DNA of 64,000 bases from Escherichia coli. Its GTDB lineage: Bacteria; Pseudomonadota; Gammaproteobacteria; Enterobacterales; Enterobacteriaceae. Positions within the stretch are counted from its first letter, which is position 1, and every line of letters starts with the position of its first letter. This document shows, in pieces, positions 2,069 through 61,000 of the stretch. The notes under the pieces were generated by a model that saw only the letters and a program-made list of their open reading frames with translations, searched no databases and had not been told where the DNA came from. The DNA lies in the NCBI RefSeq assembly GCF_009931435.1, contig NZ_CP043414.1; one strand, 5' to 3'. The translations under genes were made by a program, and so were the position numbers.

Positions 2069-4006
2069 TCAGTAACGACGTCCCCATTCCGTGGCGCTCA
2101 TCAACGTTGGTTTATCCCCCATGAAATAGCGGTAGTAAGCGTCATAAGCCAGCACGTTCTTCACATAACCGCGCGTCTCAGAGAACGGAATACTCTCGAC
2201 AAATGCCACTGCGTCGATACGACCAGCGCTGTTGCCAAGCCAGGTGCGCACTCGTCCAGGTCCGGCGTTATAAGCTGCTGAGGCGAAAATACGGTTATTG
2301 CCAAACTGCTGATAAACATATTGCAGGTAACTGGTGCCGATGTTGATGTTCGTTTCCGGATCCAGCAATTGCCCAGGGCTGCTGTAGCCAGGAATAGAGA
2401 ACATCTTCACCGTATGGGTCGCCGTACCAGGCATAATCTGCATCAGCCCGCTGGCCCCTACCGGTGACTTCACTTTCGGATTCCAGGCGCTCTCCTGACG
2501 GGCAATCGCCATCGCATAGCTTTGCGGGATCTCCTTACCGCTGGTGTAACGTTTGAAAAAATCGTTGTAGGCCAGCGGGAATCGTTCTTCCAGATGATCC
2601 CACAACTTCCCGGCGATCGTCGCCTGAACGCTGAGATCCCACCATTGGTTGTTGAAAGCATACCGTGCCAGCTGTGCCTGCTCTGTTTTTGACTTGCTCT
2701 TCACCAGATTGGCCCACTCGCTACGCGCGGTGTTATCGAGATTCCAGTACATCAACTCGCGCACGCGCGCCATCTCCGGCCCCTGAGTCAGGGTGCTGTC
2801 AACATTCTGCGGCGCTTTATCAATCTTCAGCTCATACTCTTCGCCGATGCGCTGTGCAGCAACCATCGGGTAGAAACCACGCTGTTGCATGAGTTGATGC
2901 AGAATCTCTTTCGCTTCAGCTTCACGTCCGCGTTCCAGCAATAAATCGGCCTGCCAGTAACGCCATTCATCTTTCTCTTTCGCTTCCATCGGCAAACGCG
3001 CCAGCCAGGTATTCAGGCCACGCCGATCGCCAGTACCAAGCGCCATCCGCACTCGGCGTTCAATCAACGAGGTGGATTGCGAGCGCATAATGGCGTCATC
3101 GCGCCATTTCGCCTGCTCGTCGGTGACATCGTTGCCCATCAAACGCCAGGCGACGATATCGCGCAGTTCCTGAATCTGATCTTCATTAAGCTGCTGTGCC
3201 TGAGCAAGCGATGGAATCATCAGCCGTGCATTTTCAGCATCCTGCCGTGCCACGCTGGCAAACGCCACCGCCGCCATTTGACGGGTAAAATCGGTCGCAC
3301 CGGTTGTACGCGCGAAGGTCAGTACCGTATTAGGGTTGTTCGCCAGAGAAATAATCGCCGAGGCGATAGTCTGGTAATCAGCAGGCATCTGACCTGCCAG
3401 CACTGTCACCAGACCCGTGTTACCCGCTTTCATCGCCAGACGGATACGCTCTAAATACGCCAGCGGATCTTGTTTGCCTGACGCACGCCAGACACTAAAT
3501 AACTTGTCACAAGCGTTAGGCTGGCTCTTGCCGGTTAGCCACAACTCTTTCGCCCCTTGCCAGGCTTCTTCACTCTGCCCGGTGTTCCATTTCGCATAGT
3601 AGTAATTACATTGCGCTTCGGTAGTTCCGGGCTTTTCCGGGCTAAAGGCTAACAAGCCACGCCAGTCTTCACGCCGCGCCAGTTCATTGACGAAACGAGA
3701 TTGCAGCGTGCGAGCGGGAGGAAGCGTGGGGTTAGCGCGAACAAAGTTAGTGACCGTCACCGCCGGTTGATTCATCAGGTCATCGGTGATCTGACGGTAT
3801 TCCAGGTAGGGATAAAGCGGATAATCTTTCAGTCCAGGCATCATTTGTTCGACCACATCCATTTGTCGATTATCCCAGGCCTGCTTAATTTGCGCGTAAC
3901 GGCTACGCTGCTCATCCAGTGAGTCGGCTCGCGCCACGCTGCTGACCGTCAGCAGACAGACACCGACAGCCAACAGCCGCCAGGTAACGTGTTTGGCTTT
4001 TTCCAC
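2069..4006 (-). CDS. slt: Soluble lytic murein transglycosylase Slt70
   Basis: 645-aa ORF with an N-terminal signal peptide and a C-terminal lysozyme-like domain (...ESAWNPKVKSPVGASGLMQIMPGTA...). Confidence 0.95.
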   Translation of the reverse strand: MEKAKHVTWRLLAVGVCLLTVSSVARADSLDEQRSRYAQIKQAWDNRQMDVVEQMMPGLKDYPLYPYLEYRQITDDLMNQPAVTVTNFVRANPTLPPARTLQSRFVNELARREDWRGLLAFSPEKPGTTEAQCNYYYAKWNTGQSEEAWQGAKELWLTGKSQPNACDKLFSVWRASGKQDPLAYLERIRLAMKAGNTGLVTVLAGQMPADYQTIASAIISLANNPNTVLTFARTTGATDFTRQMAAVAFASVARQDAENARLMIPSLAQAQQLNEDQIQELRDIVAWRLMGNDVTDEQAKWRDDAIMRSQSTSLIERRVRMALGTGDRRGLNTWLARLPMEAKEKDEWRYWQADLLLERGREAEAKEILHQLMQQRGFYPMVAAQRIGEEYELKIDKAPQNVDSTLTQGPEMARVRELMYWNLDNTARSEWANLVKSKSKTEQAQLARYAFNNQWWDLSVQATIAGKLWDHLEERFPLAYNDFFKRYTSGKEIPQSYAMAIARQESAWNPKVKSPVGASGLMQIMPGTATHTVKMFSIPGYSSPGQLLDPETNINIGTSYLQYVYQQFGNNRIFASAAYNAGPGRVRTWLGNSAGRIDAVAFVESIPFSETRGYVKNVLAYDAYYRYFMGDKPTLMSATEWGRRY

Positions 4007-11079: not shown

Positions 11080-12096
11080 ATGTCCACATTACGCCTGCTC
11101 ATCTCTGACTCTTACGATCCGTGGTTTAACCTTGCGGTGGAAGAGTGTATTTTTCGCCAGATGCCCGCCACGCAGCGCGTTCTGTTTCTCTGGCGCAATG
11201 CTGACACCGTGGTGATTGGTCGCGCGCAGAACCCGTGGAAAGAGTGTAATACCCGGCGGATGGAAGAAGATAACGTTCGCCTGGCGCGGCGCAGTAGCGG
11301 TGGCGGCGCGGTGTTCCACGATCTCGGCAATACCTGTTTTACCTTCATGGCTGGCAAGCCGGAATACGATAAAACGATCTCCACCTCGATTGTGCTCAAT
11401 GCACTGAACGCGCTCGGTGTCAGCGCCGAAGCGTCCGGACGTAACGATTTGGTGGTGAAAACCGCCGAAGGCGACCGTAAAGTCTCAGGCTCGGCCTATC
11501 GCGAAACCAAAGATCGTGGCTTCCATCACGGCACCTTGCTACTCAATGCCGACCTTAGCCGCCTGGCAAACTATCTCAACCCGGATAAAAAGAAACTGGC
11601 GGCGAAAGGCATTACGTCGGTACGTTCCCGCGTGACCAATCTGACCGAATTGCTGCCGGGAATTACCCATGAGCAGGTTTGCGAAGCCATAACCGAGGCC
11701 TTTTTCGCCCATTATGGCGAGCGTGTAGAAGCGGAAATTATCTCCCCGGACAAAACGCCGGACTTGCCGAACTTCGCCGAAACCTTTGCCCGCCAGAGTA
11801 GCTGGGAATGGAATTTCGGACAGGCTCCAGCGTTCTCGCATCTGCTGGATGAACGCTTTACCTGGGGCGGCGTAGAACTGCATTTCGACGTCGAAAAAGG
11901 CCATATCACCCGCGCCCAGGTGTTTACCGATAGCCTCAACCCCGCACCTCTGGAAGCTCTCGCCGGACGACTGCAAGGCTGCCTGTACCGCGCTGACATG
12001 CTGCAACAAGAGTGTGAAGCGCTGTTGGTTGACTTCCCTGAACAGGAAAAAGAGCTACGGGAGTTGTCGACGTGGATAGCGGGAGCGGTACGGTAA
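11080..12096 (+). CDS. lplA: Lipoate-protein ligase A
   Basis: 338-aa [31 protein letters not shown]... matches LplA as recalled. Confidence 0.95.
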
Positions 12097-12127
12097 CTCG
12101 CTGATTAAAATATCCAGGGAAGGAAAT

Positions 12128-12391
12128 ATGATCGATTTGAAGAACCAGGAACGGGAGATTATCAATTTAATGTTCAGCCAGGGTATATCCTGACTAACCG
12201 CCGTGCGTATCAGGCATAAACTATCACTTGCTGAAGTTAGTAAAATGTTGGGTATCTCGATTAATTCTCTAAAACAAATCGAAAAGACGGAACGGCTTAG
12301 TTCAAACATCAAAAACAAAATGGCAGGAATTTATGGTTGTCCGCCAGAGTTGCTGATATGCCCTTACTGGATGACGGCTGAACATAAATGA
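12128..12391 (+). pseudogene. Small HTH (XRE-like) reading frame interrupted by one in-frame TGA; possible remnant
   Basis: ATG 12128 gives MIDLKNQEREIINLMFSQGIS, then TGA at 12191-12193, then the same frame continues ...RIRHKLSLAEVSKMLGISINSLKQIEKTERL... to 12391; K-12 has yjjJ at this junction as far as I recall. Confidence 0.3.
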
Positions 12392-12489
12392 ATAGATTCG
12401 TGAATAGATACTCGAATGGATTTAATTTTCTATCTATATGAAAAATAATAGTAAATCTATAAATCAGTCGCTATTGATGAATAGATACT

Positions 12490-12518
12490 AAAAAGCCGGA
12501 GCGGTCTCCCGCTCCGGC
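12490..12518 (-). terminator. Rho-independent terminator of deoD
   Basis: GCCGGAGCGG-TCTC-CCGCTCCGGC hairpin followed by a T-run on the minus strand, about 35 nt downstream of the deoD stop. Confidence 0.6.
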
Positions 12519-12551
12519 TTCACACGACAATCGCCTTTCAGCGAAACACAA

Positions 12552-13271
12552 TTACTCTTTATCGCCCAGCAGAACGGATTCCAGTGCGATTTTGATCATG
12601 TCGTTGAAGGTGGTCTGACGCTCAGCGGCAGTGGTTTGCTCGTGAGTGCGGATGTGGTCAGACACGGTGCAGATGGTCAGGGCTTTCGCGCCAAACTCTG
12701 CAGCCACGCCGTAGATACCAGCCGCTTCCATTTCCACGCCGAGGATGCCGTATTTTTCCATCACGTCGAACATTTCGCCGTCCGGAGAGTAGAACAGGTC
12801 AGCGGAGAACAGGTTACCAACGCGAGCATCAATGCCCAGTGCTTTAGCTGCATCTACCGCGTTACGCACCATGTCGAAGTCAGCGATAGCTGCAAAGTCA
12901 TGGTCTTTAAAACGGATGCGGTTAACTTTGGAATCGGTGCAGGCACCCATACCAATCACTACGTCACGCAGTTTTACGTGCGGCAGAACTGCGCCACAGG
13001 AACCAACGCGAATGATTTTCTTCACGCCGAAATCGGTGATCAGTTCTTTAGTGTAGATGGAGCAGGACGGGATACCCATACCGTGGCCCATTACAGAAAT
13101 TTTGCGGCCTTTGTAAGTACCGGTGAAGCCCAGCATACCGCGAACGTTGTTCACTTCACGAGCATCTTCAAGGAAAGTTTCAGCAATATACTTCGCACGC
13201 AGCGGGTCGCCTGGCATCAAAACTACGTCAGCGAAATCGCCCATTTCTGCATTAATGTGTGGAGTAGCCAT
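12552..13271 (-). CDS. deoD: Purine nucleoside phosphorylase DeoD
   Basis: Start placed at [33 protein letters not shown]... (239 aa). Confidence 0.95.
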
Positions 13272-19516: not shown

Positions 19517-19735
19517 ATGGCGGATGCAGCCTACGGTTCGGCACAGACCTGTAGGCATGATAAGACGCGTCAGCGTCGCATCAGGCATTGTGCGCCAACT
19601 GCCGGATGCGGCGTGAACGCCTTATCCGGCCTACGGTTCGGCACAGACTTGTAGGCATGATAAGACGCGTCAGCGTCGCATCAGGCATTGTGCGCCGACT
19701 GCCGGATGCGGTGTGAACGCCTTATCCGGCTTACG
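19517..19735. repeat. Tandemly duplicated REP/BIME cluster (two ~100-bp units)
   Basis: Unit CCTACGGTTCGGCACAGAC(C/T)TGTAGGCATGATAAGACGCGTCAGCGTCGCATCAGGCATTGTGCGCC(A/G)ACTGCCGGATGCGG(C/T)GTGAACGCCTTATCCGGC occurs twice, about 19529-19628 and 19629-19730. Confidence 0.6.
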
Positions 19736-27530: not shown

Positions 27531-27617
27531 GCGAAGGTGGCGGAATTGGTAGACGCGCTAGCTTCAGGTGTTAGTGTCCTTACGGACGTGGGGGTTCAAG
27601 TCCCCCCCCTCGCACCA
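27531..27617 (+). tRNA. leuQ: tRNA-Leu (anticodon CAG), copy 1
   Basis: 87-nt GCGAAGGTGGCGGAATTGGTAGACGCGCTAGCTTCAGGTG...CCCTCGCACCA with encoded CCA; long variable arm; anticodon CAG. Confidence 0.95.
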
Positions 27618-27645
27618 AAAACCACGTTGATATTGCTCGCACTGG

Positions 27646-27732
27646 GCGAAGGTGGCGGAATTGGTAGACGCGCTAGCTTCAGGTGTTAGTGTTCTTACGG
27701 ACGTGGGGGTTCAAGTCCCCCCCCTCGCACCA
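27646..27732 (+). tRNA. leuP: tRNA-Leu (anticodon CAG), copy 2, with a C-to-T change at position 48
   Basis: Identical to copy 1 except GTTCTTACGG instead of GTCCTTACGG in the variable arm. Confidence 0.95.
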
Positions 27733-27765
27733 AACGAGGCGATATCAAAAAAGTAAGATGACTGT

Positions 27766-27852
27766 GCGAAGGTGGCGGAATTGGTAGACGCGCTAGCTTC
27801 AGGTGTTAGTGTCCTTACGGACGTGGGGGTTCAAGTCCCCCCCCTCGCACCA
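27766..27852 (+). tRNA. leuV: tRNA-Leu (anticodon CAG), copy 3
   Basis: Identical to copy 1. Confidence 0.95.
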
Positions 27853-60896: not shown

Positions 60897-60914
60897 GTAT
60901 TTAGCGCGGTGCGA

Positions 60915-61000
60915 ATGTGCGCCAACACACCCGCACCGCTCATCACAATCCCTATTTCACGAGAATAGTAATCATGACTGACACGCATTCTATTGCACAA
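60915..61000 (-). ncRNA. symR: Expected position of the SymR antisense sRNA (boundaries not determinable from sequence)
   Basis: Placed only by analogy: in K-12 SymR is encoded antisense to the symE 5' UTR and start codon; no independent sequence evidence. Confidence 0.25.

Follow-up and report, generated by a model that had tools for sequence, protein, structure and literature searches.

The window, a stretch of 64,000 nucleotides of Escherichia coli DNA, carries the genes serB (minus strand), ytjB (plus strand) and lplA (plus strand, 11080-12096), followed by a short interval and then by deoD, deoB and deoA, all three on the minus strand. The lplA stop codon lies at 12094-12096 and the stop codon of deoD, read on the minus strand, begins at 12552, which leaves an interval of 455 bp (12097-12551), close to the 450 bp or so given in an earlier reading of the window made from its letters alone (the sequence-only reading). 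deoD has an intrinsic terminator on the minus strand (12488..12520), consisting of a perfect 12-bp stem (12493-12504/12509-12520) followed by TTTTT. In K-12-type genomes and in CFT073, the place between the two genes is occupied by yjjJ, which lies on the deoD strand and whose stop codon abuts that of lplA; the presence of yjjJ between deoD and lplA in K-12 had been stated correctly in the sequence-only reading. The gene yjjJ, or hipH, codes for a toxin, a Ser/Thr kinase of the HipA family whose N-terminus carries an HTH (Gerdes et al. 2021, PMC8262856; Gratani et al. 2022, PMC9948734). When we searched the window with YjjJ by tblastn, we found nothing at the locus and no hipH/yjjJ gene anywhere in the window.

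The interval contains instead a reading frame of 87 codons plus a stop (12128-12391, plus strand, 264 bp), which is interrupted by a TGA at codon 22 (12191-12193, plus strand) and translates as MIDLKNQEREIINLMFSQGIS*LTAVRIRHKLSLAEVSKMLGISINSLKQIEKTERLSSNIKNKMAGIYGCPPELLICPYWMTAEHK*. Both the XRE-like frame and its single in-frame TGA had been described before, and both are present. We refer to the gene as HTH87. It is preceded by a Shine-Dalgarno-like purine-rich stretch, CAGGGAAGGA, at 12115-12124 (plus strand), and a consensus promoter scan gave one plus-strand promoter-like site, which overlaps the HTH87 start. An intact CDS of 87 amino acids is annotated at the identical position in loci L001, L002, L128, L129, L132, L137 and L138, and the RefSeq name at this position is "helix-turn-helix domain-containing protein" (XRE family transcriptional regulator in UniRef). 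The accession is WP_000566247.1 in the nearest genome, WP_000566145.1 in E2348/69 and WP_000566150.1 in an O157-type strain. The window copy is an allele of WP_000566247.1, here in the state of a pseudogene: the two are 99% identical in nucleotides and encode the same residue at every codon except codon 22. Position, co-orientation with lplA, length of 87 codons and identity all place the window copy in the WP_000566247.1 family, from which it departs in having an interrupted frame.

We analyzed the protein with codon 22 repaired. Pfam assigned residues 25-75 to HTH_3 (PF01381) with 23.6 bits, a small margin over the gathering threshold of 23.0, and Sigma70_r4 also matched, with 25.3 bits against a gathering threshold of 24.1. 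The AF2 model (pLDDT 88.8) predicts an N-terminal helix (residues 2-18) and a five-helix domain with helices at residues 22-29, 34-41, 45-54, 59-69 and 73-76. A sequence search of the PDB with HTH87 gave nothing significant, and a fold search was required. The best PDB matches in Foldseek were CylR2, C.AhdI, SinR-N, P22 c2 and 434 Cro, which align with 53-60 columns of the model at an rmsd of 1.5-2.1 Å. HTH87 would therefore have the predicted five-helix HTH (residues 22-76) in common with these XRE/Cro-C1 proteins, whereas the predicted N-terminal helix (residues 2-18) would be an addition of HTH87.

The HTH87 family is very narrow. A phmmer search of 1.84 billion cluster representatives returned 28 matches, which are essentially Escherichia and Salmonella variants along with fragments and a small number of distant XRE proteins with several domains; the closest broader family is the phage family phrog_7241, annotated as 'transcriptional regulator'. 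For the more divergent pairs of intact E. coli alleles, dN/dS was 0.11-0.16, on small counts. A syntenic orthologue in another enterobacterial genus (P0078 on L125, a singleton, with an LplA that is 90% identical) is 43% identical to HTH87 and retains exactly 87 codons. Taking annotation, fold, narrow family, dN/dS and the 87-codon orthologue together, we conclude that HTH87 is a real but dispensable coding gene. We found no functional study of a protein of the WP_000566247.1 family and no literature on its locus tags or accessions. One further apparent homologue, P0077 (69% identical), was discarded because it is the E. coli gene in C->T converted (bisulfite-like) form. It occurs on L126 and L127 (Logan SRR18740011 and SRR13921544), and its changes are those that C->T conversion yields (A->V, S->F, R->W/C, P->L, H->Y and T->M), with the LplA and DeoD beside it degraded to 59% and 46% identity. 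P0077 is probably assembled bisulfite-treated E. coli DNA within the protein collection.

The sequence-only reading took the frame for a separate small regulator gene rather than a remnant of yjjJ, and this was borne out. The frame has no similarity to YjjJ (BLASTP E >= 0.18, over 6-12 residues only), the intact 87-amino acid gene is found at the same position elsewhere, and the predicted fold is of the XRE type. An origin of HTH87 as a relative of the YjjJ N-terminal HTH or as an inverted yjjJ fragment is ruled out by BLASTP and tblastn. Nor is the frame without homologues, because intact ones exist.

Codon 22 is TGG (Trp22) in every other allele examined. Over the 455 bp, the window differs from the nearest genome at three nucleotides, one of them the G->A at 12193 that turns TGG into TGA; the remaining two single-base differences are at 12137 and 12435. 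Of 5,426 genomes, 907 were matched by a 56-nt probe with the TGA at its centre, none of them identically. Three genomes carry a radA that is 100% identical to that of the window, and the two that were checked both have an intact WP_000566247.1. The TGA is thus private to the window sequence rather than a consistent feature of a non-coding region, and its absence from the closest genomes makes the window copy a strain-private pseudogene, or else the base is a sequencing error. HTH87 has also been disrupted independently in other strains, by Q50* in strain WAT and by a 1-bp deletion frameshift in PS1Phumofeces1, both of which are flagged as pseudogenes by PGAP, and truncated variants are many in protein databases, some of them in large clusters. 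With different lesions in other strains and a private TGA here, the window copy represents one more independent loss, or a base-calling error. By analogy with strain WAT, PGAP would be expected to annotate it as a pseudogene ('internal stop').

If the TGA were an error of sequencing or assembly, the gene would be intact in the organism. The TGA is a single-base difference from the closest genomes that none of the 907 probe-matched genomes has, and two further single-base differences fall inside the same 455 bp, all of which speaks for an error. However, G->A transitions are the commonest real mutations, and HTH87 is dispensable and often broken in other strains by different lesions. We consider an error quite unlikely and continue with a strain-private pseudogene, which, for an annotated accessory gene, is an ordinary finding.

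The TGA falls after the N-terminal helix and before the DNA-binding HTH domain, and the interrupted gene might still yield some functional protein by one of two routes. UGA is the leakiest stop codon of E. coli, and a C at +4 is its weakest context. The stop context here is TGA-C, and misreading by tRNA-Trp would restore the wild-type Trp22, although read-through normally amounts to just a few per cent. Translation could also restart at a GTG at 12203, in frame and 9 nt past the stop. The hypothetical restart product would come from a GTG-started ORF of 62 codons (12203..12391, plus strand, in the same frame 3' of the TGA) that encodes the entire HTH domain and retains the HTH_3 match at residues 25-75. 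However, no Shine-Dalgarno sequence precedes GTG 12203, and the product would lose the N-terminal helix at residues 2-18. The exact 62-amino acid product is absent from a collection of 15 billion proteins. Residual expression by read-through or restart is conceivable but unsupported, and we regard a functional product of the window copy as somewhat unlikely.

Aligned with K-12, the window is not colinear at the lplA-deoD junction. A segment of 286 bp (12097..12382, plus strand), which comprises a 31-nt leader and HTH codons 1-85, substitutes for the 1332-bp yjjJ CDS of K-12-type genomes, and homology restarts exactly at the yjjJ start codon. In a GC profile, the segment has about 39% GC compared with about 56% in its flanks. 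The start codon of yjjJ/hipH itself survives as a relic at 12383..12385 on the minus strand (CAT on the plus strand, ATG on the minus strand), where it aligns with the annotated yjjJ ATG of the K-12-type locus L003 (3001-3003). The same CAT is the His86 codon of HTH87. The window therefore retains the slot, the upstream array described below, the start codon and the deoD terminator of the K-12 yjjJ/hipH locus, whereas the kinase gene itself is missing.

The sequence-only reading had suggested comparing the junction with E. coli genomes. We did so by megablast and found that 4068 of 5426 complete genomes (about 75%) cover at least 80% of the window junction and have the HTH87 form. The remaining complete genomes mostly match only the deoD-proximal 40% of the junction, and they carry yjjJ. 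In our reading, the lplA-deoD junction is a two-state locus, with either yjjJ/hipH and its upstream array or the HTH87 form. The first state, with yjjJ/hipH as a monocistronic toxin-kinase gene, is that of K-12, CFT073, E. albertii and the remaining Enterobacterales genera in the sample. In the second state, the yjjJ CDS has been swapped, from stop codon to start codon, for the AT-rich segment of 286 bp, which bears most of the 87-amino acid XRE-type HTH gene on the strand opposite to yjjJ and 31 bp 3' of lplA. This second state is that of the window, and it is shared by other Escherichia, by many Salmonella enterica and, within E. coli, by about 75% of the complete genomes. That yjjJ can be present or absent at lplA-deoD is a polymorphism already known.

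Next to the relic start codon lies an array of short repeats. We counted exactly three occurrences of the motif TGAATAGAT in the whole 64 kb (12389, 12401 and 12478), where 0.42 were expected; 2 of 100 shuffles reached that number anywhere in the window. The corresponding 12-mers are TGAATAGATTCG, TGAATAGATACT and TGAATAGATACT, which agree in place and sequence with three 12-bp copies pointed out earlier. A fourth, degenerate unit, CGAATGGAT at 12413-12421, keeps the 12-bp period and had been missed. We counted unit positions from the relic yjjJ ATG. On the minus strand, the proximal array (12389..12421) then consists of three units with a 12-bp period: ATCTATTCA at -12 (12397..12389) and at -24 (12409..12401), both exact, and the degenerate ATCCATTCG at -36 (12421..12413), with two mismatches. 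The distal ATCTATTCA unit (12478..12486, minus strand) is at -101, which is 65 bp upstream of the first proximal unit (12486 to 12421). The HTH87 stop codon, a TGA, sits within the first proximal unit.

The positions of the proximal array are those of K-12, E. albertii and other yjjJ loci, and K-12-type DNA has the same units directly upstream of yjjJ, at -36/-24/-12/-101 from the ATG. After an array of this kind, hipH would be expected to start 0-30 nt downstream on the same strand. The window has two exact tandem units and a distal spacing of 65 bp, within the usual 65-66 bp, followed by the ATG alone. Because no hipH comes after it, we conclude that the window array is an orphan. This changes one part of the sequence-only reading, which was right that the HTH frame is no remnant of yjjJ and overlooked that, by alignment with K-12, the repeats and the CAT in codon 86 are one. 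Searching positions 11900-12800 against Rfam in E-value mode returned just one sub-threshold chance match, on the deoD terminator, and no known RNA element. A consensus promoter and terminator scan gave no minus-strand promoter-like site; the same scan overlooked the obvious deoD hairpin, which makes it uninformative.

To follow the array beyond the window, we scanned one genome per species (100,044 species, 298 Gb) for TGAATAGAT-N3-TGAATAGAT, which has 18 specified bases. The tandem motif was found at no fewer than 120 loci, compared with about 9 expected by chance in 2 x 298 Gb. A HipH homologue (30-95% identity) was present at 73 of the at least 120 loci listed. These 73 belong to Enterobacterales, Xanthomonadales, Burkholderiales, Rhodocyclales and others, and in all but a handful hipH starts 0-30 nt 3' of the array, always on the same strand. 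The 47 of 120 listed loci that are without a nearby hipH comprise some orphan arrays, some cut contigs and some chance or unrelated repeats. Among the matches listed, there were 69 distinct hipH upstream regions, with three tandem units in 28 and two in 37. A distal unit was present in 39 of these 69 listed regions, at a spacing of 65-66 bp in 28 of the 39, and the chance of such an extra unit is about 1.6% per locus. Nearly all HipH N-termini of the array loci have the HTH segment SQ(P/A)T(V/L/F)SR in common.

The scanned hipH loci had been selected by the motif, and we therefore drew five yjjJ orthologues from a protein search with the motif ignored, all from Enterobacterales (Salmonella, Kosakonia, Pluralibacter, Erwinia tasmaniensis and Klebsiella sp.). 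The array was present in all five: each had its distal unit at -99/-101, and the proximal units, two or three in number, lay at about -36/-24/-12. The distal-to-proximal spacing was 65-66 bp in four of them and 64 bp in Kosakonia, and the DNA between the units was unalignable between genera. In two of the five, a promoter of the form TTGACA/TTGCAA-17-TTAAAT could be seen by eye between the distal and proximal units, its -10 overlapping the first proximal unit.

The YjjJ HTH 'may function to bind DNA', and YjjJ control is stated as unknown (PMC8262856, PMC9948734); neither paper describes an operator. Our literature searches for the motif or for a HipH operator found no description of the element. 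Its position, its conservation and an analogy with hipBA make the array a candidate HipH operator. Most likely it serves HipH's own N-terminal HTH and has been orphaned in the window. From the position of the array and its co-conservation with SQ(P/A)T(V/L/F)SR, we infer that this HTH may bind the array and bring about autorepression. In yjjJ-bearing genomes, the HipH N-terminal HTH would bind the direct repeats, of which the proximal units would span the -10, leader and ribosome-binding region while the distal unit would lie upstream of the -35, and HipH bound to the array would repress its own promoter. The window array would then be the yjjJ upstream element that the replacement left behind, without its cognate gene and decaying neutrally.

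The hipBA operators are palindromes, TATCC-N8-GGATA, that are bound by HipB. They resemble the hipH array in that several sites lie around the promoter of a HipA-family toxin, with autorepression as the presumed purpose. In contrast to the palindromic hipBA sites, the hipH array is built of 9-bp direct repeats with a 12-bp period and a distal unit 65 bp off, and the HTH presumed to bind it is part of the kinase protein itself, not a separate HipB. A HipB-type operator at the locus was rejected: sites matching TATCC-N8-GGATA with at most two mismatches numbered 22 in the 64 kb against 18.5 expected, not above chance, and none fell in 12389-12492.

The repeats adjoin HTH87, and the HTH87 stop codon lies inside the first unit, so we also considered that they are binding sites of the 87-amino acid HTH protein itself, used in autoregulation or in control of a neighbour. 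Yet the same array precedes hipH in dozens of taxa without HTH87, the syntenic HTH87 orthologue of L125 has no such repeats, and the sites lie 3' of HTH87 instead of at its promoter. We regard this explanation as extremely improbable; the repeats are unrelated to HTH87 and are a relic of the yjjJ/hipH upstream array. Taken together, it is very probable that the locus is explained jointly by a two-state junction, a pseudogene with a private TGA (barring sequencing error) and repeats that are a left-behind putative HipH operator.

Several further loci show the array in other surroundings. Enterobacteriaceae bacterium RIT691 (L055) has the motif at 1254-1274, the end of lplA at 593, deoD at 1403-2119 and no yjjJ; a 217-amino acid ORF with a hydrophobic N-terminus, at gap 0 from this orphan array, looks like another, different replacement. 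Serratia plymuthica (L044), Enterobacteriaceae UBA2655 (L070) and Pantoea sp. RIT-PI-b (L072) have the tandem motif and no yjjJ match. In all three, the DNA downstream of the motif resembles antisense ytjB; upstream of it, at about 100 bp, L044 has deoD. This suggests orphan arrays between deoD and ytjB in genera without lplA at the site. At L118 (10239-10432), all that is left of yjjJ between lplA and deoD, beside the array, is pieces of its N-terminus (residues 1-14 and 13-67), a case of independent yjjJ decay. CFT073 (L004) has an IS200C transposase gene (3397-3855) that separates deoD from the yjjJ upstream region, where the units at -101/-36/-24/-12 are kept.

Two groups of loci carry the motif in front of other genes. 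Five contigs of one Verrucomicrobiaceae MAG (L007-L011) have the 21-nt tandem motif 19 nt upstream of an identical ORF, which is 354 amino acids long in four contigs and 235 (cut) in one, starts MKVTLQQAATLVQTCGHTNTFLLRGAPGIGKSS and looks by eye like a P-loop ATPase. This is probably a repeated mobile element unrelated to hipH. In two Acinetobacter loci (L037 and L124), the motif lies 16 nt upstream of a 187-amino acid ORF that resembles 3-methyladenine DNA glycosylase I (Tag) of E. coli. The motif there may be due to chance or may be a second use of it.

The order deoD-[array]-yjjJ-lplA is found in E. albertii, Citrobacter, Pseudocitrobacter, Kosakonia, Pluralibacter, Buttiauxella, Siccibacter, Cedecea and some Salmonella, and in Erwinia yjjJ also adjoins deoD. 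The inter-unit triplets of the array in the HTH87 form, AGT and CGA, are those of the Escherichia yjjJ form. These shared triplets lead us to conclude that the HTH87 form derives from a yjjJ-bearing ancestor by exact CDS-for-CDS replacement. Salmonella enterica is polymorphic for both forms, and its HTH87 form is syntenic with that of E. coli. Synonymous divergence between E. coli and Salmonella is 0.43-0.61 in ytjB, lplA, deoD and deoB, compared with 0.055-0.20 in HTH87, and the 160-bp spacer between HTH87 and deoD is identical at 154 of 160 positions (96%). The E. coli-type deoD terminator is present in the HTH87 form of Salmonella and absent from its yjjJ form. These figures are most simply accounted for by a transfer of the cassette between the two genera, with Escherichia the probable donor and Salmonella the recipient; the alternative is selection on the spacer.

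Such selection might act if the relic region were still functional in HTH87-type genomes, for example by driving antisense transcription into HTH87 or by binding a HipH paralogue or some other factor. A spacer so little changed beside genes with synonymous divergence of 0.43-0.61 could be read in this way, as could a TTAAAT hexamer found at the place of the yjjJ -10 of the Salmonella and Klebsiella yjjJ forms. However, the synonymous sites of HTH87 are equally undiverged (pS 0.055-0.20), which argues for a recent transfer of the cassette as a whole and against constraint on particular sites, and the consensus scan, as noted, found no promoter-like site on the minus strand. The 9-mers also vary as the spacer does. 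In eight E. coli alleles of the HTH87 type, substitutions were 4/36 in the relic 9-mers and about 5/65 in the rest of the spacer, so that this small sample gave no extra conservation of the 9-mers. One allele even lacks a unit: in E. coli PS1Phumofeces1 (L131), exactly one 12-bp unit is missing at window positions 12400-12411, as replication slippage would give, and this is the same allele that carries the 1-bp HTH87 frameshift. Relic units as variable as the spacer, together with the loss of one unit, fit neutral decay, and we hold a function kept by selection to be unlikely.

A stronger proposal is that selection acts on HTH87 and the orphaned candidate HipH operator as one unit, which has travelled between Escherichia and Salmonella and is no neutral relic. 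We judge this very unlikely. Were it true, the array would be put to use by HTH87 or by an antisense transcript that starts at the former hipH promoter, or it would be a decoy titrating HipH-type regulators, and the 96% spacer identity across genera would mean function and not recent transfer. We prefer transfer of the cassette with a neutral relic. lplA-deoD then offers a clean case of exact CDS-for-CDS cassette replacement, common to two genera and diverged far less than its flanks.

For the window itself the result is housekeeping, namely a private nonsense mutation in an accessory regulator gene that was already annotated. The array has wider use as a sequence tag for locating hipH promoters and their relics. 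With HipH/YjjJ control described as unknown (PMC8262856), it also provides a concrete candidate operator with fixed geometry, from Enterobacterales to Burkholderiales. Its wide conservation, with no description in the accessible literature, is a modest lead on HipH toxin-kinase control.

We also made several observations on the window outside the interval. Its lplA (11080-12096) is 94.3% identical to that of K-12 and 93.6% identical to that of CFT073, and 98.9% identical to that of L136, an assembly labelled E. fergusonii (GCA_020035025.1), with about 99% identity across the locus; the radA and tsr of the window are ordinary E. coli and put the window in that species, against a suspected origin from E. 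fergusonii. Either lplA-deoD is unusually polymorphic, or alleles cross species, or GCA_020035025.1 is mislabelled. At gathering level, Rfam matched two copies of naRNA4 (REP-type) at 19554-19631 and 19654-19731, three tandem tRNA genes of 84 nt at 27531-27849, and the SymR antitoxin RNA at 60903-60979.
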